Positions 1,878-29,092 of a DNA stretch of 38,952 nucleotides are shown one piece after another. Within the stretch, counting starts at the first letter, position 1. Each line of letters opens with the position of its first letter. Position numbers and translations under genes: made by a program. The stretch lies in the sequence record SRR20825019_867. One strand, written 5' to 3'. Under the pieces are notes generated by a model. The model saw only the letters and a list, made by a program, of their open reading frames with translations. It searched no databases and was not told where the DNA came from.

Positions 1878-4136
1878 CTACTGATTCACAAATTCTACAT
1901 TATCCCCAAGAAGATTATCTAAGTCAGTTTGTTCTTGAAGAACTTCATGTGTATTGGACCCTATATAATCAGAACTTGCTCCTTGGTTATCATTTTCTGG
2001 ATTAAACTCATTATATTTCCTTTTATTACTATTTTCTCCTATTTTATATATTAAATCATCAATATTAGTTTTTTCTTCAAATAAATCAACAAAATTACTT
2101 ACATGACTTATATTCAACTTATCAAAGAATGAATTTTTAATTTTTTCAGCATTTCTACTTTTATTTCCTAATTGTAAGATCTCAATAACTTTTTTGTTTT
2201 GCATGAATTCTACAATCTTTGTAGCTTGATTTAATTCTATATCCTTCTCCCCTATTTGTACGTTCCATGCTTCACCATTCACATCTTTAATTAGCAGTAC
2301 CCCTCTGATGCATATAGTTTTAAAAAAATATTTTTTTGGGTGCACACTGAGTTTAGCAAGAGGTTCAGACATATAATTTTTTTCAAACGCCTGCCATATT
2401 GCTGATTCTAGCATCTCTTCATGCTTACCGTCAGTTTTATCTAATTTTTTATATTCATGTATTATTACACTATTGCTAGGTTCTTCATTATTAATTAATG
2501 GATAAAATATATTATCTATTCTACCTCTCTTGCCAATTGTTTTCTCTATACCAGTATAATATTTAGCACTTTGATTATTGTATAATGAATAGAGTTCTAT
2601 TGCACCCCCTATTATAGATTGGAAATACATCTCAGACTTCTCTCCTTTTTGTATCTTGTTTATTAATTTATCTCTTAATATTTCTAGAAACATAGTTGTG
2701 TTATAAAGATTCTGGCATAAATCATGACCTAGATGATTAATGTTATAACTTTCATCTATTACACAACCATCTAATTGTTTTGCTAACCATATTTGTAATA
2801 TTCTATCATTAAAATACTTTTCTATCTCTTTATTAGGTATCTTGAGACTTCCTTCTTTTTCATTCAGATACCCATAATGGATTAGTAGATAACTTACCAA
2901 CATACTTTTTGCATTGTTATTATCTATGTTACCCATAAAACTAAAATCCCTATCAGGTATAGGAAGTTTTACTTCTTCTCCCCTAGATAATCTAAATAGT
3001 AAGCTTATAAAATCATTATCAGCTCCCAAATTACTAATATTTTCAAAAATGTCATTCATGGCAGAATTAGACCAGTAACTAATAGGGGTTACTTCTATCC
3101 CTTCAGACATAACTTTATTTACATGATTGATTACAGACCATATATTATATTTGTATATTAAGTTATTCTCATGATCTTTTGTTTCGTAACCATCATACCA
3201 TTCTTTAAGTTGTAAAAACAAATTCTCTTTATCTTCCCCATGATAACCTGCTTTATCCAACAAATCTCTAACTTCCTTATCTGTCAATCCGTAATAATTT
3301 GAAAAATTCATGTTATTTAAATCATAGATTTCAGATACATTATTAAAACCAGAACCTTCATCTCTTACTATAAAATCTGTTACACCTGTTAAAATTGTTT
3401 TTTTTACAAATTCACTATCTTTTGCGCAATTTGATATCATGGATGTAATGAAACTAGTTATTACTTTCCTATCCTCCACCAAACCTTTATAATTCCCCAA
3501 AGTTAAGAAATGACTACCAGGTTTATCATGTTCGTCTACCAATAACCACACAGCTTTATTATAGTGTTTGTACAAACATTTAGCTAAAAATTTTAAACTA
3601 TGTTTTAATTGATCGTCTATAAAAACCCCTTCAAGGTGATTTAAAAATCTTCTTTTAGAAGACACAATTAATTTACTGCTCTCAGATAAGTACGCGTAAT
3701 CTTCATATAGTTCTTGAATGTGAGTCTTAATAGAATTCATAGCCTCTTCTATATTATTTCCTTTACATTCTTTTAAATTTAATAAAATTACAGGCTCAGT
3801 TCCCTGTCTATCCATTATATTTCCCTCATCTACTTTTGATATTTCAAGTGGTAATAACTTTTTACTCTCTTTGCCATTTTTCAGCTCCCCTCCTTTAAAT
3901 AATATTTTATTAGAGTTAACATCTTTTATTTCATAATTTTCATCAACCTCAATATTTAAAAACCTCTTGAGCATATCTAAATTCGTGCTTTTGCCCCATC
4001 TTCTTGGCCTTATGATTATCATAGCCGCATGATTATTATCAATTACCTCTTTGATAAAAAGGCTTTTATCAATAACAAAATCACTCTCCATAACTAACTG
4101 ACGAAAATTGCTTGTTCCTATATGAATCTTTAACAT
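1878..4136 (-). CDS. AAA-ATPase-like domain fused to a PD-(D/E)XK-type nuclease domain
   Basis: N-terminal IGTSNF..IDKS, Walker A RPRRWGKS, Walker B LLVDEHD, WYDGY/YNIWS motifs, and C-terminal GRID...IIHEYK. Confidence 0.85.
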   Translation of the reverse strand: MLKIHIGTSNFRQLVMESDFVIDKSLFIKEVIDNNHAAMIIIRPRRWGKSTNLDMLKRFLNIEVDENYEIKDVNSNKILFKGGELKNGKESKKLLPLEISKVDEGNIMDRQGTEPVILLNLKECKGNNIEEAMNSIKTHIQELYEDYAYLSESSKLIVSSKRRFLNHLEGVFIDDQLKHSLKFLAKCLYKHYNKAVWLLVDEHDKPGSHFLTLGNYKGLVEDRKVITSFITSMISNCAKDSEFVKKTILTGVTDFIVRDEGSGFNNVSEIYDLNNMNFSNYYGLTDKEVRDLLDKAGYHGEDKENLFLQLKEWYDGYETKDHENNLIYKYNIWSVINHVNKVMSEGIEVTPISYWSNSAMNDIFENISNLGADNDFISLLFRLSRGEEVKLPIPDRDFSFMGNIDNNNAKSMLVSYLLIHYGYLNEKEGSLKIPNKEIEKYFNDRILQIWLAKQLDGCVIDESYNINHLGHDLCQNLYNTTMFLEILRDKLINKIQKGEKSEMYFQSIIGGAIELYSLYNNQSAKYYTGIEKTIGKRGRIDNIFYPLINNEEPSNSVIIHEYKKLDKTDGKHEEMLESAIWQAFEKNYMSEPLAKLSVHPKKYFFKTICIRGVLLIKDVNGEAWNVQIGEKDIELNQATKIVEFMQNKKVIEILQLGNKSRNAEKIKNSFFDKLNISHVSNFVDLFEEKTNIDDLIYKIGENSNKRKYNEFNPENDNQGASSDYIGSNTHEVLQEQTDLDNLLGDNVEFVNQ

Positions 4137-18582: not shown

Positions 18583-19803
18583 ATGAAAATAATAGCAACA
18601 GTACCTCAATGGTTATTATTGCTCATGTTTACTGTTCCTTTTATGACTGAAACTATTTGTAGTTCAGCAATGCCTGCTTATTCAGCTGTTACTTTAGCTC
18701 CTAGTATAATTGTTCAAAAAGCATCTGGATTTTATTTTCTTGGTTTTGCAATAGGGATTTTATCTTTAGGCAGAATATCAGATATAGTAGGAAGAAGGCC
18801 AGTTATGCTTTTTGGAATGCTTTTATATAGTATTTCTAGTTTGTTATGTTCTTTAATATCTAATATTTATATTGTTTTATTTTTAAGATTTATTCAAGCA
18901 TTTGGCGCAAGTGTTACTTCTGTTGTTACTCATGCTATGACTAGGGAGTCATATAAAGATCAAGAGCTTGCATATATATATATTAATGCAGGATTTTGTT
19001 TTGCCGTTAGTCCGTCAATAGGCTCTTTTTTAGGAGGATTTTTAGCTGAATATTTGGGTTATGAATATAATTTTATATTTCTATGTATTTTTGGTGCCTG
19101 TATATTTATAACTTGTTATTTATTATTAGAGGAAACAAACCCTTATTTAGGTGAAACTTTACAAACGAGTTATTTATCAGTTTTAAAAGTGATATTAAGA
19201 GATAGAGTAGTTCTTTTATATGCAGTTATTGTAGGCTCTCATATGGGGATTATGTTTAGTTTTTTTATGAAAGGGCCTTTTATATTTAAAAAAATAATAC
19301 CTATATCAACCTTAATTTATGGGTTAATGATGTTTGCTGTAACTATTTTTAATATTATAGGTAATGTGTTAAATAGGCATTTAATTAAGAATTATGTGCC
19401 TAGTAATAAAATATTTCTTTTAGGATTAAGTACGAGTTTTATTGGTATAATGTTATTTATGATAAATTCTAGCAATATAAATATAGGAGTTAGTTATAAA
19501 TATTTACCTTTGTTAGTATTTTTTATACCTTTAATATTACATATGATGTCATATAATATGGTAACTTCCCATATACTCAGATTTGCACTTGAAGATTATG
19601 GTAAAGTTTCTGGAACTGCTGGTGCGATTTTTGGAAGTACATATTATATTTTTGCAGCTTTTATAAGCTATATAGTATCTAGGTTAACTCCTGATGATAT
19701 AAATGCTTTTTCTTTAATGATTTTTTGTTTTAGTGCTTTGAGTTTATTTTCTGCTTTTTTAATATTCCTAATGGAAAGGGATAAGTACAGTGTTGAAAAT
19801 TAA
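18583..19803 (+). CDS. Bcr/CflA-like (DHA1) MFS transporter
   Basis: About 12 hydrophobic segments, motif A GRISDIVGRRPV, RFIQAFG. Confidence 0.88.
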   Translation: MKIIATVPQWLLLLMFTVPFMTETICSSAMPAYSAVTLAPSIIVQKASGFYFLGFAIGILSLGRISDIVGRRPVMLFGMLLYSISSLLCSLISNIYIVLFLRFIQAFGASVTSVVTHAMTRESYKDQELAYIYINAGFCFAVSPSIGSFLGGFLAEYLGYEYNFIFLCIFGACIFITCYLLLEETNPYLGETLQTSYLSVLKVILRDRVVLLYAVIVGSHMGIMFSFFMKGPFIFKKIIPISTLIYGLMMFAVTIFNIIGNVLNRHLIKNYVPSNKIFLLGLSTSFIGIMLFMINSSNINIGVSYKYLPLLVFFIPLILHMMSYNMVTSHILRFALEDYGKVSGTAGAIFGSTYYIFAAFISYIVSRLTPDDINAFSLMIFCFSALSLFSAFLIFLMERDKYSVEN

Positions 19804-20139
19804 TTATTTTTCGAGCTTCTTTTATATATAGGATTTAAATAGATAAAGTGCTAAATTGCAACAAAAAAACAGAAAATATAAATTTATTTAAGTATTTTTT
19901 AGTTTTTTTACTCCTTTTATACTACTTGTTTATTAAGTTATATAAATAATAATACATATAAGTATAAATAAAATAATCAGTATTTAATAGCTGTATTTGT
20001 AGAAATGTTGCGTAGCGTAATATATCATAAACATATGTTGCTACTTAATGGTTGGACATAAAAAATAGTTAATGTATTTAATTAAATCTTATAAAACTTT
20101 TTTATAACTAATTAGGAAATAATTAGAGCTAATTTGTGC

Positions 20140-20207
20140 CTAGGTAATTTTTACTTAAGAAAATTATCATGAACTTAGCTGATTAGCTTCATTATATTTG
20201 TTATTAA
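20140..20207 (+). promoter_or_regulatory. Upstream element with imperfect palindrome TAGGTAA-TTT-TTACTTA (copy 1)
   Basis: Homologous copy at 36915-36986 upstream of the paralogous gene. Confidence 0.65.
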
Positions 20208-20234
20208 AGAGTTTTTTAAAATATTTTAATTTAT

Positions 20235-23200
20235 ATGTTTATTGATGAAATGTCATATAACAAGGTAAAGGAGATATATAGTTTACATTTATCTGAAATA
20301 GGGGGCATTAAATTCACTAACAGAGAGATAGATGTTGTTGCATGTGTTTTACATAATAGAGGAGAAAAAAAGATAGCTTCTTTGCTTTCTATTTCGCCAA
20401 GGACTGTTGGTACCCATACACATAATATCATGCTCAAATTATCTTGCAGTTCTAAGGAAAATCTAATAGATTTTGTTGAAAGATCAGGTAAGTTATTATT
20501 TTTTAAGCAATATTATTTAAATTTGCTTGTAAATAGATATTACATAGCTGAACTATTAAAAATCTCTTCATATAATAAAGATGGAGTTGAAATAAATGTT
20601 GTATATGGAGATATTGATGAAAATTCAACTCAGTTACTTCAAAATATTAAAGAGGATTTACAAAAGGTTAATATTCTTTTTAGCTCTCAGAAAGAAGATA
20701 AAGATATAGGCAAGAATATAGTAGAGATTACTATTAAAGATAGTAATGATTTAATCTCATTAAGTCTTGATACTGATAAAAAGAATAAAAGTAAAAAATC
20801 TCAATTAATTGATTTTAGAGGAGGAAGGAATTTTTATGACAGTATATTTAGTTTAATAAACTTAATACTTAAAAACCCTGTAGTAGAAGATGGTAGAAAA
20901 GAGTTTCATAAAAATAGTCAGGCACTTGAAGAGCCATTAATAGAAACTGGTAAAAAAGTTGATACAGTAAGTAAAAAAAATAATAATTCAAATATTACTT
21001 TCTTTAAAAGAAGAAATACTTATTTGTTAGCTGCGCTAATACTAGTTTTTCTAGTTGTAACTAAACCTTTTATGAAGTTTCAAATTAATAATTCTGACTC
21101 TGTGAGAGCTCAGTTGTTAGTACCTCATTCTGGAATAATATTAGAAAGACCAAATATTATGAAGGTTCTTTATAAGACTTTATCTGGTAAGGATCCTATA
21201 AATACTGTAGCTATTGTTGGTATTGGAGGTTCAGGTAAAACTACGATAGCTAGGATGTATGCTAGAATGCAAAAAATACCTGTTATTTGGGAAATTAATT
21301 CTGAAAGTCATGAAACTATTATTTTTTCTTTTGGTCAGCTTGCATATTCTTTATCTGATGCTCAAGGTAAAAAAGAATTAGCTGTAATACAGAATTTAGA
21401 AAATAAAAAAGAAAGGGAAGATAGGTTATTATTATTTCTAACAAGAATACTTAAATCATATAAAGATTGGATAATACTTTACAATGATGTAGTTAGTTTT
21501 AAGGATATTAAGCGCTATTTACCACAAGATCCTCAAGTATGGGGAAGGGGTAAAGTAATAATTACTACAAGAGATAGTAATATAGATCATAATAATTATA
21601 TACCAGCTTCAAATATTATAAAATTAGGAGAATTAAATCAGGATGAAAAATTAAAGTTATTTAGTAATATTGTTGGTACTGACATAAAAAAGCCAGATAC
21701 TATAGTATCGCGTAAAAAATTCTTAACTAATTTACCTCCATATCCGTTAGATATTTCTTTGGCAGCTTATTATATAAGAGAAGAAAAAACATCCTATTCT
21801 GATTATTTGTTACATCTTAAAACTCAGGATGATGAATTTTCATCAATGCAGCAATCTATTCTTGGAGATGTTGGAGAGTATACTGATACAAGATGTAATA
21901 TAGTAAATTTATCAGCAAAACATATTATTAACTCAAGTAAGGATAATAAATCGTTATTATTAATGATTAGTGCATTAGATCCTAAAAATATCCCTAAGAA
22001 ATTTTTAAATGATTATAAGGGTGAAGTCGCTGTTAGTAAGTTTATGCATGATCTAAAGAAATTTTCAGTGATAGAAGAAAAATATGAGAATGATGAAGTA
22101 GGAACAATTATATCTATTCATAAAAGTATACAGGATCTTCTTATGGCTTATATGATCAGATTTTTCAAACTGAGTGATAATACTAAATTTTTAGATGGAA
22201 TATATAATGTAATAGAAACTCATCTTAAAACAGAATTATCTAAAAATGTGGACCCAAGAATTCCAATGATATTTTCTAATGCTAATACTTTACTAAAGCA
22301 TGAGAAATATATGAGCAAGACTGTAGTTTCTAAATTATCTTATAATCTGGCTAGTTATTATTTTGATATGACTAATTATCCAGATTCTATTATTATGTTT
22401 AATAAATCATTACAGATTACAGAAGATATATATGGAAAAGATAGTATAGAGGCTTCAAAAATTGCTGTAAGACTTGGTAAGGCTTATAGAAATTCAGGTA
22501 AATATTTTGCTGCTCAGACGCTTCTTACTAAAGCATATGAATTTTATAAGGGTTATTATGGGGAAGATCATCTTGAAACTAATTTGACTGCATTTAATTT
22601 AGGAACAGTTTATAGAAATGTTGGTGAGTTTGATAAATCTATAACTATTTTGAAAAAAGCTTTATCAGTTTTTGAAAATAAATTAGGAAAAAATCATATT
22701 AAAACTGCTACTGCATCTATGCATATAGGTAATGCTTACGCTAATATAGGTAATTATATGCAAGCAAAAAAATATTTAATGTATGATGCTGAGATTTATA
22801 TATCAAATTATGGTAAGGATAATGTGAAAACAGCTTGGGCTCTTACAAGACTTAGTTGTATATATAGATATTTAGGAGATAATCTTAGAGCTAAAGAGTT
22901 AATTCATCAAGCTAAGGAAATTTATGAAAAATTAGCTGGTAAAACTTCTACAGAAACAGCTTGGACTATGGTTAAGCTTGGAAGTGTATATAATGAACTT
23001 GGCGAATATAAAAGGGCTAAATCATTAATTGAGGATGCTTTAAAAATATACAGAAAATATTTACCTGATGATCATGTGATTTTAGCATGGAGTAAGTTAA
23101 AATTAGCATTTACATTGCAAAATTTAAGGGATTATAAAAATTCTATTTCTTTAATAGAAGATAGTGTAAGAATTTATCAAAGTTATTACGGCCCTAATCA

Positions 23201-23468
23201 TATTTATACAGCTAAAGCTTTAAGGGATCTTGGATTAACATATTATGCAAAGGGTAGTTTAGATAAATCTGCATATTTTCTTGAGAAAATAGTACCTATG
23301 TTATCAAAAGTAAGACATCATAGCTATTATAAATGTTTAAGGTCTTTATCAGATATTTATATGAGAAAAGCTCAGCTAGCTAATACTCAAGATGAAAGAA
23401 TGAAACTTCAAAAAGAAGCTTCTGAATATTTAAAAAGTTCAGCTCAGCTAATAAATAAAGATTTATGA
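20235..23468 (+). CDS. LuxR-type HTH / transmembrane / NB-ARC (STAND) / TPR protein
   Basis: FTNREIDV..KKIASLLSISPRTVGTHTHNIMLKL (LuxR HTH); KRR then YLLAALILVFLVV; Walker A GIGGSGKT; WIILYNDV; IITTRD; PPYPL; ~42-aa YGxDHxxTA TPR repeats. Confidence 0.88.
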   Translation: MFIDEMSYNKVKEIYSLHLSEIGGIKFTNREIDVVACVLHNRGEKKIASLLSISPRTVGTHTHNIMLKLSCSSKENLIDFVERSGKLLFFKQYYLNLLVNRYYIAELLKISSYNKDGVEINVVYGDIDENSTQLLQNIKEDLQKVNILFSSQKEDKDIGKNIVEITIKDSNDLISLSLDTDKKNKSKKSQLIDFRGGRNFYDSIFSLINLILKNPVVEDGRKEFHKNSQALEEPLIETGKKVDTVSKKNNNSNITFFKRRNTYLLAALILVFLVVTKPFMKFQINNSDSVRAQLLVPHSGIILERPNIMKVLYKTLSGKDPINTVAIVGIGGSGKTTIARMYARMQKIPVIWEINSESHETIIFSFGQLAYSLSDAQGKKELAVIQNLENKKEREDRLLLFLTRILKSYKDWIILYNDVVSFKDIKRYLPQDPQVWGRGKVIITTRDSNIDHNNYIPASNIIKLGELNQDEKLKLFSNIVGTDIKKPDTIVSRKKFLTNLPPYPLDISLAAYYIREEKTSYSDYLLHLKTQDDEFSSMQQSILGDVGEYTDTRCNIVNLSAKHIINSSKDNKSLLLMISALDPKNIPKKFLNDYKGEVAVSKFMHDLKKFSVIEEKYENDEVGTIISIHKSIQDLLMAYMIRFFKLSDNTKFLDGIYNVIETHLKTELSKNVDPRIPMIFSNANTLLKHEKYMSKTVVSKLSYNLASYYFDMTNYPDSIIMFNKSLQITEDIYGKDSIEASKIAVRLGKAYRNSGKYFAAQTLLTKAYEFYKGYYGEDHLETNLTAFNLGTVYRNVGEFDKSITILKKALSVFENKLGKNHIKTATASMHIGNAYANIGNYMQAKKYLMYDAEIYISNYGKDNVKTAWALTRLSCIYRYLGDNLRAKELIHQAKEIYEKLAGKTSTETAWTMVKLGSVYNELGEYKRAKSLIEDALKIYRKYLPDDHVILAWSKLKLAFTLQNLRDYKNSISLIEDSVRIYQSYYGPNHIYTAKALRDLGLTYYAKGSLDKSAYFLEKIVPMLSKVRHHSYYKCLRSLSDIYMRKAQLANTQDERMKLQKEASEYLKSSAQLINKDL

Positions 23469-23528
23469 TGAATTATTTATATTGATTTAATTATAGTTTA
23501 ATTTGTTTATTTCATTTGAGTATTTTTA

Positions 23529-25226
23529 TTACTCTAGGTAATTCATTTTTAGTTTTACAGCCCTAACTTTCGGATGAGACATTTTAACTATACATTCAAG
23601 GTTAGATAAGCTTGCAAGGTCTGATGGTAGAATTACGGGTTTTTTCTTATCTTGCTTTGTAAAGTTAATACCATCTCTTGATTCATGATATCCATACATA
23701 AAATTTTCAGAATGTTGAGAATAGTCTATATGACCAAATATATCAGATAGGTATGATGAGAATTTTTGATCTTCTGTTCTAAAGATAAATTTAGTATTAA
23801 ATTGATCAAGCATAGCCATAGCTTGGTTATATCCGTATATATTATATAGTTGGCTTGGTGACTGTACTCCTGCAAGTACACATCCTCCATATTTTCTAAA
23901 TTCAGCAAGAACTATTGGAAGGGATGGTATTTTTTTTAAGGCTGGAAGTTCATCTATTATTAGCCAAATTCTTCTATCTTTTGATGGGCCAAGCTGCATA
24001 ATATTTGCCATTATTAAATCAAGTAATAAGCTATAAAAATTTTTTAATTTTGATCTTTGAATAGGTGATGCTGTTAGAAATAGCCATTTATCATTTTCTT
24101 TATCTATATTTTGGCACCATTGATTAATTGATATTTTATCTTTAAGCTGTTCATATTCATGCCTTGTACATATATTTAGCCAATCTATAAATGATATAGT
24201 ATTAGTTCTAATAGATAGTGCTGTTTTTTCATTTTGTGGATCTAATAAACTTGCTGAAGGGGTATTTTTAAGTTTAGAGTGAATTATATTTATATTTTCT
24301 GTCATTAATATATTTTTAAGTTCTCTTAATGTTTTGGCTGGTTTTTTATTAATATGTGAGACTGCATCTTCAAAGAATATTGAGGATGCTCTATTCCACA
24401 TTGGATCATATTGATTATTAGAATCAAAAAGAGAATTTGCAATAAAGCTAATTGATTCCTGATCTGATGCGTCATTCCAAAAATCCCATTGATAAGAATC
24501 TTTTAGATAAGGATTTATTAATATATCGTGATTTTCTTTGAAATATTTATTCTTAATTTCTCCTGTAAAATCTACAATTACAGCAGTATGTTTTTTATCT
24601 CTTATTTGTTTTATAAAATGTTGAATGCAATTACTTTTACCAGAACCTGTTGTACCTGTAATAAGAGTATGAGAAGTTTCAAAATTTTTTACCATAGGAA
24701 GTTTAGCAATAGTAAAACTAGAAATTTCATTTGATTTTATTAGTAAATTTGTTGCAATTTTTTGAGACATTATATCTGTACCTTTAGATACTGAAGGCTT
24801 TGATTTATTTTTTCCGTATCTTGAGCAAATTCCTACTGAAAATATAAATGATATAAAAGAAATATATAAAGAATATTTTATATTAAATATTTGTATATAT
24901 AGCCATTTATTGAAATTATTCTTAAGTTTTTGTTTGTTACGTAATCCATAATTTTTATATGAATTTTTATAATTACTATAATTATTTAATTTAGTTTTAT
25001 TATTTAAATTATGTAAATTTATATTAAGCCAGTGATATATATTTAACTTTATATATTGTTTTACTAATTTAGTATCTGGTAATTTATTTTTATATGTAAA
25101 GAATATTAGGGAATATGATATGATAAATATTAATATACTAGAATAAAGAGCTGTTTTAAGGGATTGCCTTAGCATTCTCATTTGGTGTATTAATAATTGA
25201 CTGCCTCTTGTATAATCTTTAATCAT
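23529..25226 (-). CDS. traD: F-type conjugative coupling protein TraD (type IV coupling ATPase)
   Basis: N-terminal TRGSQL..HQMRM, two TMs, GTTGSGKS, WLIIDELPAL, RKYGGC..GVQSPSQL, SRDG. Confidence 0.88.
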   Translation of the reverse strand: MIKDYTRGSQLLIHQMRMLRQSLKTALYSSILIFIISYSLIFFTYKNKLPDTKLVKQYIKLNIYHWLNINLHNLNNKTKLNNYSNYKNSYKNYGLRNKQKLKNNFNKWLYIQIFNIKYSLYISFISFIFSVGICSRYGKNKSKPSVSKGTDIMSQKIATNLLIKSNEISSFTIAKLPMVKNFETSHTLITGTTGSGKSNCIQHFIKQIRDKKHTAVIVDFTGEIKNKYFKENHDILINPYLKDSYQWDFWNDASDQESISFIANSLFDSNNQYDPMWNRASSIFFEDAVSHINKKPAKTLRELKNILMTENINIIHSKLKNTPSASLLDPQNEKTALSIRTNTISFIDWLNICTRHEYEQLKDKISINQWCQNIDKENDKWLFLTASPIQRSKLKNFYSLLLDLIMANIMQLGPSKDRRIWLIIDELPALKKIPSLPIVLAEFRKYGGCVLAGVQSPSQLYNIYGYNQAMAMLDQFNTKFIFRTEDQKFSSYLSDIFGHIDYSQHSENFMYGYHESRDGINFTKQDKKKPVILPSDLASLSNLECIVKMSHPKVRAVKLKMNYLE

Positions 25227-25627: not shown

Positions 25628-25655
25628 TTGCTTTTTCCAAAGATTTTTGTATAGT
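25628..25655 (+). promoter_or_regulatory. Putative sigma70 promoter for the XRE gene
   Basis: TTGCTT-16 nt-TATAGT, with the ATG 7 nt downstream. Confidence 0.45.
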
Positions 25656-25661
25656 GCCCGC

Positions 25662-26078
25662 ATGGAAAAAGTAGCTGAAAAAATTAAAATGCATCTAGCT
25701 TTACAGAATAAAAATGTAAGGCAAATTGCAGCTGAAGCAGGAATATCTAGACATCAAATAGATAATATTCTTTATGGTAGATCATACAGGTATAATGTAC
25801 TTGCAAAAGTTGCTGATGTTCTTAAAGTGCCAGTTGATAGTCTAATTGAAAGAGAGGATAGTACAGATAAGGGTACTAAAGTTGATATATCAACTTTAGA
25901 AGGTCAAGCTCAAGATTTTATTAAAAGTATAAGTCAATCATACAGGTTAGAAATTCCTGAATATAAAGAAACTCAGATAGTAGCAACTCTTTTATCAAAT
26001 TGCTATTTAGTAGATAACAAACAGGACCTTTATTCAATGATTAAAGGTATATTATGTTTTGTTTCTAGTAATCAGTAA
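25662..26078 (+). CDS. XRE/Cro-CI family HTH transcriptional regulator (ATG at 25662 preferred)
   Basis: NVRQIAAEAGISRHQIDNILYG..LAKVADVLKVPVDSLI plus an unknown C-terminal domain. Confidence 0.85.
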   Translation: MEKVAEKIKMHLALQNKNVRQIAAEAGISRHQIDNILYGRSYRYNVLAKVADVLKVPVDSLIEREDSTDKGTKVDISTLEGQAQDFIKSISQSYRLEIPEYKETQIVATLLSNCYLVDNKQDLYSMIKGILCFVSSNQ

Positions 26079-27403: not shown

Positions 27404-29092
27404 TTAGTTATGAGTATCAATTTCTTTTTTGGAAAAAATTTGAGATATATCAATATCACCTAAATCTGAATTATGAAATTCAGTATTATCTATAGTAGCT
27501 CCTTTAAAATTAGAGTTGTTAAAATTTACATTAGTAAAAACAGAATCTATAATATTTGCTTTAGAAAGATCTGTATTAGTCATATTAGAGCTATTAAATA
27601 ATGAAGATTTAATATTAGTATCTTTTAAAATAGTTGAGTCAAAATTTACATTATTAAAATTTTTATTATCAATATTTAATCCAGTTAAGTTAAAGTTAGA
27701 TAAGTCTTTCCGTGAAAAGAATGAATTTAAATCATAATAGTTGGATAAATTTGAAATTACCTTAATGCCAGTATTACCTATTAAAATAGACTTTTTAATA
27801 TTTCTAATTTTATTTGTAGTTGGTGAAATATGATTAGAAATTAATTGTGAGTTTTTAAAAACTATATTATTAAAATCAATATTTAAAAATAAATTTTTTC
27901 TTAGTGCTGTTTTATATAGGTCTACTAGAGAGATGATAGAGGCTTTTATTTTATTTTGAGAGAATAAGCTTGCAGTAAATTTTGATGTTGAGATTTCAGT
28001 ATTAATGAAATATGAGTTTAATATTTCACTATTTAAAAAATTGTTATTAATTATTTTGCTATTATTAAAGTAAGAATTAGTAACAAGAGAATTATTAAAA
28101 TAACTATTTCTAAAAGCTGAATTAGTTAGATATATTTGAGCTAGACTTGTATTTTTAAAGGATGATCTATCAATAAAACTATTTTTTATTTCAAGTTTAT
28201 TTAAATATGCATTATCAAAATTACAATTACTACATATAAAGTCATTAAGTAAAGTTAAGCTTAAGCTAGCATTTTGGAAAATAACAGAATTTAATATAGA
28301 TCTTTGAAAATCTGCTGTTTCAATAACAGTTGATGAAAAGTTAGCTCTTGATAAATCTGATTCTGTAAAACTAGTTTGTTGGATTATAGCTTTATTAAAG
28401 TCAGCGCCTGATAAGTTACAATCTTTAAGAATTGCTTGTGATAAATCTGAAGATTCTAAATATGCAGAATGCATATTACTTCCTGATAGGTTTGAGCCTG
28501 TAAGATCTGCGCATAAGAAATTTGTATATGACATATATGCATATTTTGCTTGTATATAACTTAAGTTAGATCTATGAAAGCTAGAATTTCTAATTTCAGC
28601 TCCATTAAGTTTTGATTTACATAAATTTGAATGATTAAAATTAAGATTTACCGCTTGAATATTATCTAGGATATTTTCTGGCATTTCATTATGTGTAAAT
28701 AATGCATAATTCATTTTAGATTTACTAAAATCACAATTTTGAATTAATGAATATGTTATTGAAGCTTCTTTAAGATCTACATCTTCTAAGTTACAATTTT
28801 TTAATATTAGGTTTTTAGCAGATATTGATTTTAAATTGGCTCCTTTAAGATTTACGTCAACAAATTCTGCATTATCTAGAATAACTCCTTCAAGATCGAC
28901 AGACTCTAAATTTAAATTATTTAATTTAATACCAGATAGATTTGTACTAAAATGGCTTTTTATATCTACCTTTTTATTAGATTTTAATTGTTCTTGTATG
29001 GAATATGTTAGTATTTCTGAAAAATGTAAATCTGGATCTTGAGAGCAAGAGCTTGTTAATAAAATAATTATTAAAGCTGATACTAATTGCAT
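27404..29092 (-). CDS. Pentapeptide-repeat protein, probable lipoprotein
   Basis: Long A/S-D/N-L/F-x-x arrays; hydrophobic leader ending LTSSC. Confidence 0.88.
   Translation of the reverse strand: MQLVSALIIILLTSSCSQDPDLHFSEILTYSIQEQLKSNKKVDIKSHFSTNLSGIKLNNLNLESVDLEGVILDNAEFVDVNLKGANLKSISAKNLILKNCNLEDVDLKEASITYSLIQNCDFSKSKMNYALFTHNEMPENILDNIQAVNLNFNHSNLCKSKLNGAEIRNSSFHRSNLSYIQAKYAYMSYTNFLCADLTGSNLSGSNMHSAYLESSDLSQAILKDCNLSGADFNKAIIQQTSFTESDLSRANFSSTVIETADFQRSILNSVIFQNASLSLTLLNDFICSNCNFDNAYLNKLEIKNSFIDRSSFKNTSLAQIYLTNSAFRNSYFNNSLVTNSYFNNSKIINNNFLNSEILNSYFINTEISTSKFTASLFSQNKIKASIISLVDLYKTALRKNLFLNIDFNNIVFKNSQLISNHISPTTNKIRNIKKSILIGNTGIKVISNLSNYYDLNSFFSRKDLSNFNLTGLNIDNKNFNNVNFDSTILKDTNIKSSLFNSSNMTNTDLSKANIIDSVFTNVNFNNSNFKGATIDNTEFHNSDLGDIDISQIFSKKEIDTHN

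Follow-up and report, generated by a model that had tools for sequence, protein, structure and literature searches.

Switches of the STAND/NLR type are seen as cytoplasmic, and transmembrane regulators of transcription as free of a nucleoside triphosphatase (NTPase). The window analysed here, that is the whole 38,952-nucleotide stretch of sequence record SRR20825019_867, holds a gene, P0001 (positions 20235..23468, + strand), whose family unites both, and the question raised by this locus is on which side of the inner membrane the nucleotide switch of such a protein would operate. An earlier note, made from the sequence alone, had proposed that the product consists of a LuxR-type helix-turn-helix (HTH), a transmembrane (TM) segment, an NB-ARC domain and tetratricopeptide repeats (TPRs), with the HTH in the cytoplasm and the NB-ARC and TPR parts in the periplasm. 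Based on the findings presented below, P0001 is read as the gene of a STAND receptor (NB-ARC/AP-ATPase class) that crosses the inner membrane once, with its N-terminus inside and its C-terminus outside and with a signalling mechanism as outlined in the Discussion; we assign this reading a probability of roughly one half.

Results

Domain organisation of P0001

Delineated as a single open reading frame (ORF) and supported by Pfam and AlphaFold2, the gene starts with ATG, contains no internal stop codons and encodes an HTH-TM-NB-ARC-TPR protein of 1077 aa, all elements of the proposed order being found by Pfam and motif analysis where they had been placed. The output module, a tetrahelical HTH of the LuxR/GerE type at aa 27-80 (20313..20474), was recognised by the Pfam GerE model (E 1.7e-10; 40.8 bits versus a curated cut-off of 23.5) and is followed, in the AlphaFold2 model of the N-terminal module, by a long helix (aa 87-113) and an alpha/beta domain (aa 118-237; together 20493..20945). 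A hydrophobic core at aa 262-276 (21018..21062), preceded by KRR at aa 258-260, is predicted from Kyte-Doolittle hydropathy to form a single TM helix. The NB-ARC domain of the AP-ATPase type (aa 310-488, 21162..21698; Pfam E 5.6e-13, 49.2 bits versus a curated cut-off of 23.5) includes the Walker A motif GIGGSGKT (aa 329-336, 21219..21242) and the Walker B strand IILYND (aa 413-418, 21471..21488), both placed by motif and family alignment, while the helical and winged-helix parts that come after it reach approximately aa 690. The presumed ligand sensor is a TPR array of the kinesin-light-chain (KLC) type at aa 695-1076 (22317..23462), which was identified by Pfam (TPR_12, 202 bits, E 1.1e-60; TPR_10, 136 bits, E 1.7e-40), by PDB profile searches, in which TPR structures of KLC1/2 match at E ~1e-40 to 1e-34, and by AlphaFold2. 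All of these features lie on the + strand. The possibility of a frameshift or gene-fusion artefact was rejected, since the identical single-ORF plan recurs across hundreds of independent contigs.

The full-length AlphaFold2 model, computed from a 103-sequence alignment, has a mean predicted local distance difference test score (pLDDT) of 90.0 and a predicted template modelling score (pTM) of 0.71. It displays, in this order, the HTH helices, helix 87-113, the alpha/beta domain (118-237), a disordered stretch (240-262), a lone helix (263-284), a short stretch of low confidence, confidently modelled NB-ARC and winged-helix parts and approximately 20 TPR helices of high pLDDT. Its best match in the PDB is 6mfv_A, a STAND protein with TPRs (Foldseek E 4.1e-13, 745 alignment columns); this archaeal protein of the PH0952 type has a chain of 641 residues, far fewer than the 1077 aa of P0001, and its entry title mentions no more than STAND and a tetratricopeptide repeat.

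A predicted single membrane helix ahead of the NB-ARC domain

The strongest hydrophobic segment of P0001 is that at aa 262-276, with a mean Kyte-Doolittle value of 2.65 in a 15-residue window and 2.10 in one of 19 residues, which bears out the hydrophobic segment that the earlier note had described at about 21021-21059 behind a KRR. In the AlphaFold2 model the corresponding helix (aa 263-284) stands alone with a pLDDT of ~54-62, and its flanks (240-262 and 281-287) fall below 50.

Across the family, a helix was scored where the Kyte-Doolittle mean over 19 residues (KD19) reached at least 1.6 at a distance of 40-110 aa ahead of Walker A. The first set consisted of 221 relatives from searches seeded with P0001 and a paralogue (222 proteins counted, both window proteins included) and the second of 111 further cluster representatives at 50% identity. 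Such a helix was found in 215/222 proteins, the remainder being four at 1.40-1.56, two that are cut N-terminally and one without a helix, and in 102 of the 111 further representatives, where four are borderline, three lack a helix and two were not matched by the Walker A pattern. According to the alignment the position of the helix is kept across the family while its residues vary freely. The second-best hydrophobic window elsewhere in the family proteins has a median KD19 of 1.27; second hydrophobic windows occur in 18 of 215 proteins, in each case inside a globular domain and never adjoining the helix, and a second TM span or hairpin, sought beside the helix in these 215 proteins, was not found. 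A kept position combined with a free sequence, a median uncharged run of 22 aa and the lack of a neighbouring span is the signature of a single TM span, and the hydrophobic segment of the family is, judged by hydropathy, a single-pass membrane helix beyond chance. The concern, voiced when the architecture was proposed, that the segment might be neither conserved nor membrane-spanning is thereby answered in both sets of relatives.

Orientation in the membrane

Lysine and arginine (K+R) residues in the 15-aa flanks of the helix average 3.97 on the N-terminal side versus 2.33 on the C-terminal side in the first set (the N side is the richer in 166 proteins, neither side in 34 and the C side in 15), and the further representatives are distributed in the same sense (75, 16 and 11, respectively). 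The positive-inside argument for a cytoplasmic HTH, which had been made for P0001, thus holds family-wide. Members that lack the HTH (P0122, P0203 and P0167) begin with signal-anchor-like N-termini, P0167 having six K/R residues directly ahead of the helix. An HTH needs DNA and a TIR domain needs NAD+, both of which are cytoplasmic, and the modules on the N-terminal side (the HTH, or TIR_2 in P0159 and P0196) are therefore expected in the cytoplasm. The opposite, N-out topology was rejected as the HTH lacks an export signal and requires DNA.

The cysteine content points in the same direction. In TM-bearing members (n = 288) the median Cys content of the C-terminal part is 0.62%, and that of the NB-ARC and winged-helix parts 0.26%, compared to 1.39% in the N-terminal module and 1.14% in 400 neighbouring non-family ORFs. 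In four relatives without the TM helix the C-terminal part contains 0.98-1.54% Cys, which corresponds to the 86th-97th percentile (TM-less versus TM-bearing, one-sided Mann-Whitney p = 0.002, with kinship ignored). Both the K+R bias and the Cys-poor C-terminal part fit a topology in which the HTH is inside and the NB-ARC outside. From these sequence patterns we infer that the N-terminal module faces the cytoplasm while the NB-ARC-TPR part of approximately 800 aa is exported to the periplasm, and an external location of an NLR-type ATPase is plausible.

Conservation of the nucleotide-binding motifs

Motif conservation was counted in 103 aligned family members. In Walker A, G329, G332, G334 and K335 are present in 103/103 members and T336 in 95/103. 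Position 417 of Walker B is D in 81 members, N in 21 and E in one, and position 418 is N in 90, D in seven, Q in three and K in three; with D prevailing at 417 and N at 418, the family consensus is hhhYDN, which fits the pattern hhhhD[D/N]. The earlier note had set IILYND apart from this pattern as fitting altered or lost hydrolysis, an argument that is specific to P0001 and does not extend to the family. Further downstream, T444 and T445 are found in 101/103 members and R446, which P0001 has, in 60/103, while P501, P504 and D506 of a PPFPLD motif are invariant (103/103) and His629 is kept in 98/103; we take T444-R446 to be Sensor-1 (TTR), PPFPLD to be GxP-like and H629 to be MHD-like. The nucleotide-binding motifs are, to judge from this alignment, under selection, and the presence of DN rather than DD in the family Walker B suggests that the NB-ARC hydrolyses ATP slowly.

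Carriers of the family and access to ATP

The window has a GC content of ~26% and its citrate synthase (gltA) shares 67-69% identity with those encoded in four genomes of the order Rickettsiales, and P0001 fits a Rickettsia-like endosymbiont as its source. Most named carriers of the family are Rickettsiales- or Holosporales-like endosymbionts: they comprise Rickettsiaceae metagenome-assembled genomes (MAGs), Ca. Megaera, Ca. Phycorickettsia and Ca. Caedibacter acanthamoebae (chromosome and plasmid), and furthermore Ca. Paracaedibacter, Ca. Paracaedimonas, Ca. Finniella, Holosporales and many alphaproteobacterial MAGs. The TLC ATP/ADP translocase (PF03219) was found in 11/15 carrier genomes versus 0/14 control genomes, and these translocases, together with the GC content and the gltA identities, agree with the endosymbiont setting that had been suggested for the gene. 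Such intracellular bacteria take up host ATP across the inner membrane. This ATP must cross the periplasm, so that a periplasmic NB-ARC would not be starved of nucleotide but would be supplied with it through a life in the host cytoplasm.

The N-terminal module

A separate AlphaFold2 model of aa 1-243 reached a pLDDT of 90.9 and a pTM of 0.86. Its HTH resembles those of DegU (7x1k_B, Z 10.7, rmsd 2.0 over 68 residues), VqmA (7dwm_B, Z 10.7, rmsd 1.5 over 69), GerE (1fse_A, Z 9.9) and likewise NarL, all four with Z values of 9.9-10.7 and root mean square deviations (rmsd) of 1.5-2.0 over 65-69 residues. At the HTH residues T57, H61, N64, I65 and K68, conservation among the 103 members is 90% or more, and the residues of the putative DNA-reading helix are kept in the family. 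For the alpha/beta domain (aa 118-237), Foldseek retrieved nothing from the PDB at E<=0.001, and the best match of a wide structural comparison, 9d2f_V, had a Z of only 5.8, with a best Atlas value of 0.75, neither of which is convincing; the domain cannot be called a new fold. Together with the long helix it lies on the same side of the membrane helix as the HTH. In P0280 and P0320, of which the first 130 residues were inspected, a short linker after the HTH gives way to a hydrophobic stretch by approximately aa 125, a layout which makes the alpha/beta domain look optional.

Aa 1-243 may form a homodimer according to structure prediction. The predicted pair scored 0.43, reaching the mark of the tool, while the best of three controls scored 0.00; among proteins of solved structure, 21 of 30 same-chain pairs and none of 23 single chains reach this mark. 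At least 75% of the contacts agreed between runs and the partner pLDDT was at least 79, the family alignment not being used. The predicted interface (aa 38-46, 74-98 and 230-233) takes in the last HTH helix. Because LuxR-type HTH dimers have already been solved, this result possibly reflects mere likeness to them.

Size, module exchange and neighbours of the family

With upper E-value limits of 1e-3, 1e-10 and 1e-30, the family numbers 2348, 1484 and 945 representatives, respectively. Species-level genomes contain 93 relatives, kept as 79 genomic loci. In the order of a Rickettsiaceae MAG (G001) a near-full match to the N-terminal module was obtained in eight of 201 sampled genomes, with shorter and mostly HTH-only matches in nine more, while in the order of Ca. 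Caedibacter acanthamoebae (G002) seven of 23 genomes carry the family, in 12, 8, 6, 6, 6, 1 and 1 copies; the maximum of 12 was reached in a genome of 1.6 Mb. More than one family ORF is present in 18/80 regions, tandem copies being common, and plasmid copies were seen in Ca. Caedibacter acanthamoebae (L009) and Ca. Megaera (P0010).

An HTH is present in nearly all of the members listed. Its place is taken by TIR_2 in P0159 and P0196 (E 2.9e-13 and 9.7e-10, respectively) and by a weak Lipase_3 match in P0214 (21.1 bits, below the 22-bit cut-off), the membrane helix and the NB-ARC-TPR part being kept in all three. As the N-terminal module is exchangeable, the family is more aptly described as output-TM-NB-ARC-TPR, which is broader than a one-component regulator; the latter term, used in the earlier note, suits the HTH copies and fails for the family as a whole, in which the module may be TIR, lipase-like or absent.

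An ORF of 176-246 aa without a Pfam family adjoins the family gene in 11/80 regions, the window not being among them, and is mostly divergent and immediately upstream, as at L075:5196-5789 (-) and likewise at L011, L015, L045, L046, L054, L065, L067 and L074; at L019 and L053 it lies downstream. It could represent a target or partner within one subfamily.

Discussion

Relation to known regulators

AfsR is a soluble protein with an OmpR-type winged helix and a BTAD, in which the DNA-binding domain likewise stands ahead of NB-ARC-TPR. The N-terminal position of the DNA-binding domain, which the earlier note had contrasted with MalT/LAL, is therefore shared with AfsR, and what is new in P0001 is the membrane helix. 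AfsR/large SARP (PDB 8k60, 8jke) is, like P0001 by its domain order, a STAND-based transcription factor, while P0001 differs from it in its LuxR/GerE-type HTH, its unassigned alpha/beta domain and the membrane helix before the NB-ARC. In PDB profile searches AfsR matches only the TPR part of P0001 (8k60_I, E 7.2e-13), as does the NCBIfam AfsR model (aa 736-941, E 2.5e-11, 42.3 bits versus a cut-off of 1430), and neither Trans_reg_C nor BTAD is among the 24 Pfam matches of P0001 at E<=1.

MalT and the LAL regulators share with P0001 a LuxR-type HTH, a STAND NTPase and TPR-like sensor repeats. MalT is soluble, with its HTH at the C-terminus and an NTPase of the MalT clade. Membership in this group was rejected, given that the HTH of P0001 is at the N-terminal end and that the NTPase clade differs; TPR_MalT matches weakly (E 8.1e-06, 25.8 bits, below the 45-bit cut-off) and the NCBIfam MalT model NF003420 covers only the HTH (aa 27-79) with 15.6 bits versus a cut-off of 537. 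ToxR and CadC, which have OmpR-type winged helices and small periplasmic sensors without an NTPase, share with P0001 an N-terminal DNA-binding domain, one predicted TM helix and a C-terminal sensor that is predicted to be external. In view of its GerE/LuxR-type HTH and its NTPase, P0001 may work in a ToxR/CadC-like manner without being a member of that group.

A survey of 50,302 transmembrane regulators (PMC10269533) lists, in the parts accessible, GerE in 4,943 and NB-ARC in eight; two passages on NB-ARC refer to the SARP type and the two names 'GerE NB-ARC' are never adjacent in the text of the supplement. Its bulk table includes Rickettsia bellii RBE_0418, a GerE protein of 983 aa with one TM helix, which may or may not belong to the present family. 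The accessible text of a preprint on bNACHT (10.1101/2022.07.19.500537) places TM segments of NACHT proteins at the C-terminus and not between effector and NTPase. Within the openly searchable portion of the literature, including these two sources and PMC7159879, no description of an HTH-TM-NB-ARC-TPR protein was found, and the caution that the architecture might already be characterised has so far no counterpart there.

Proposed mechanism

In the mechanism envisaged for P0001, the TPR array would bind a ligand, the NB-ARC would exchange ADP for ATP and oligomerise, and oligomerisation would draw the TM helices and the cytoplasmic modules together, whereupon the LuxR-type HTHs would pair and, in the manner of ToxR and CadC, bind DNA while held at the membrane. 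Activation by oligomerisation is described for VtrA in the accessible part of PMC5693285. The NB-ARC-TPR part outside the inner membrane would then be the first extracytoplasmic NLR-type switch, enabled only by host ATP/ADP that reaches the periplasm and, with a DN Walker B that hydrolyses little, able to read the adenylate state of the host or a host-derived ligand; this we advance tentatively and at odds that fall short of even. With an external switch, oligomerisation would signal to the LuxR HTH, or to TIR in some relatives, and the protein would resemble, by analogy, a Toll-like receptor made of NLR parts, a picture which is possible and which we would sooner question than assert.

Weighing the alternatives

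A number of observations weigh against an external switch in P0001. Conservation of the motifs implies that the NB-ARC needs nucleotide, which is a difficulty wherever the periplasm holds no ATP; to our knowledge there is none in that of free-living bacteria, and we know of no extracytoplasmic STAND or P-loop switch ATPase. The TM-less relatives P0062, P0273, P0277 and P0293 have intact ORFs (954-1114 aa) with a hydrophilic linker where other members have the helix, and their nearest kin are TM-bearing (42-49% identity), which indicates that an NB-ARC-TPR part is able to exist in the cytoplasm. A bias towards even numbers of Cys in the C-terminal part was not found (101 even, 100 odd; n = 201), despite the presence of DsbB in 5/5 carrier genomes tested. 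With these relatives and the absent bias arguing to the contrary, the periplasmic NB-ARC-TPR part of the earlier note keeps its conditional standing. Its caveat of a short core was correct: the uncharged run of P0001 is 16 aa versus the family median of 22 and its KD19 is 2.10 versus a median of 2.40 (46th lowest of 215). The Walker B of P0001 reads YND, with N at the aspartate position and then D, which is a minority form. The four of 15 carriers without TLC are MAGs labelled Flavobacteriales, Nitrospirota and Gammaproteobacteria, in which the family gene sits on contigs of 3.7-8.3 kb and mis-binning is likely, albeit unproven. No neighbour gene is universal across the 79 loci and the window, nor was a conserved target gene or operator found among these neighbours or by a promoter scan, which in 19700-23700 returned 23 promoter-like sites versus 30.5 expected and one terminator-like site versus 0.7, nothing of which was usable. 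Finally, all family counts were made on related sequences and are hence mutually dependent. One alternative is a protein that is tethered to the membrane yet wholly cytoplasmic and AfsR-like, its helix only anchoring it at the inner face or being released or buried. The conserved motifs of an NB-ARC that needs ATP, the intact TM-less relatives nested among TM-bearing ones and the Cys parity all speak for such an arrangement, and every characterised STAND protein known to us is cytoplasmic; we nevertheless consider it unlikely. The segment is uniformly hydrophobic over 19-25 aa and the median uncharged run corresponds to one span, too short for a hairpin; a single span with no second beside it puts the two sides into separate compartments; the AlphaFold2 helix is free between disordered linkers and not buried; and the K+R asymmetry and the C-terminal Cys depletion would be left without a cause.

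Under either topology the family might also serve primarily in conflict or immunity and not in housekeeping regulation, its members being NLR-like sensors that respond to phages, mobile elements or attack by the host, with the N-terminal module as effector, and the HTH copy P0001 would in that case turn on a defence or addiction programme. Avs, bNACHT and bSEFIR systems similarly combine an exchangeable N-terminal effector, a STAND NTPase and C-terminal repeats and have expanded paralogues, and the TIR-bearing P0159 matches the PADLOC bSEFIR model (E 3.9e-13). The swapped modules (TIR_2, and the weak Lipase_3 match), the paralogues of up to 12 per genome, the regions with more than one family ORF and the plasmid copies are in keeping with such a role, as are ORF clusters flanking several loci that resemble F-type transfer genes (by eye, without a scan) and the TraD-type coupling protein gene that adjoins P0001. 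Such a role is unlikely all the same, as PADLOC returned for P0001 and P0122 only a generic TPR model and a weak C3a156 match to the TPR part, with no Avs or bNACHT match, the HTH of nearly all listed members constitutes a regulatory and not a lethal output, P0001 is surrounded by housekeeping genes in the window, and no conserved partner gene was found. It is very unlikely that P0001 is a decaying copy, possibly no longer spanning the membrane or cycling nucleotide though the family does: its shorter core, lower KD19 and N at position 417 would agree with decay, and a truncated-looking paralogue, P0122, lies in the same window, yet the ORF is intact with all other invariant family residues present, its KD19 exceeds the classical threshold of 1.6, AlphaFold2 confidence is high across the domains and N at 417 is tolerated in 21 members. 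Least credible, and in our view highly improbable, is a secreted eukaryote-like effector, delivered into the host cell and inserted in a host membrane, whose NB-ARC-TPR part would act on host pathways. Its NB-ARC and KLC-type TPRs are eukaryote-like folds, the carriers are intracellular symbionts, a coupling-protein gene is adjacent and TIR variants exist; against this, no N-terminal feature is more conserved than the bacterial LuxR HTH with its DNA-reading residues, a secretion signal was not identified, and an internal helix of such strong hydrophobicity is more readily inserted co-translationally into the membrane of the producing cell.

Implications of an external or internal ATPase

Reduced genomes have few other regulators, and the present family, found mainly in alphaproteobacteria with an obligate intracellular life, can outnumber all other sensor families there (12 copies in a 1.6-Mb genome). 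If the ATPase proved to be external, the rule of no nucleotide-driven signalling in the periplasm would be broken, an energy parasite would gain direct sensing of its host, and the NLR field would gain a natural case of transmembrane signalling via oligomerisation of the nucleotide-binding oligomerisation domain (NOD); if internal, the family would still pose a topological puzzle. The HTH as output would make the regulon traceable.

Paralogue and genomic neighbourhood

The window contains an HTH-less paralogue of 840 aa, P0122 (34233..36755, - strand), in which Pfam identified an NB-ARC domain (aa 68-296) and TPR_12. A tail of 18 aa leads into a hydrophobic helix (KD19 2.92 at aa 19), after which come the NB-ARC and TPRs, and the protein aligns to aa 252-1072 of P0001 with 41.9% identity. 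No HTH remnant was found upstream of it, the best tblastn match having an E value of 3.9. It is a matter of speculation that P0122 may co-assemble with P0001 as a modulator; it could act as a modulator or as a decoy partner.

The surroundings of P0001 in the window are made up of housekeeping genes. Convergent to it lies a gene for a type IV coupling protein of the TraD/TrwB type (23529-25226, - strand; TrwB_AAD_bind, E 4.7e-103), besides which the window contains no transfer genes, and after this a gene with an XRE-type HTH (25647-26078). At the start of the window, two genes enlarge the TPR and ATPase content of a small genome: one (194-1780, + strand) encodes a classical TPR protein of 528 aa (TPR_1, E 6.4e-60), the other (1878-4136, - strand) a protein of 752 aa that contains an AAA-ATPase_like domain (PF09820, E 7.4e-25). 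A 562-aa pentapeptide-repeat protein is encoded at 27404-29092 (- strand; Pentapeptide_4, E 1.3e-44), and its gene overlaps the BioY gene on the same strand, which it directly precedes upstream.

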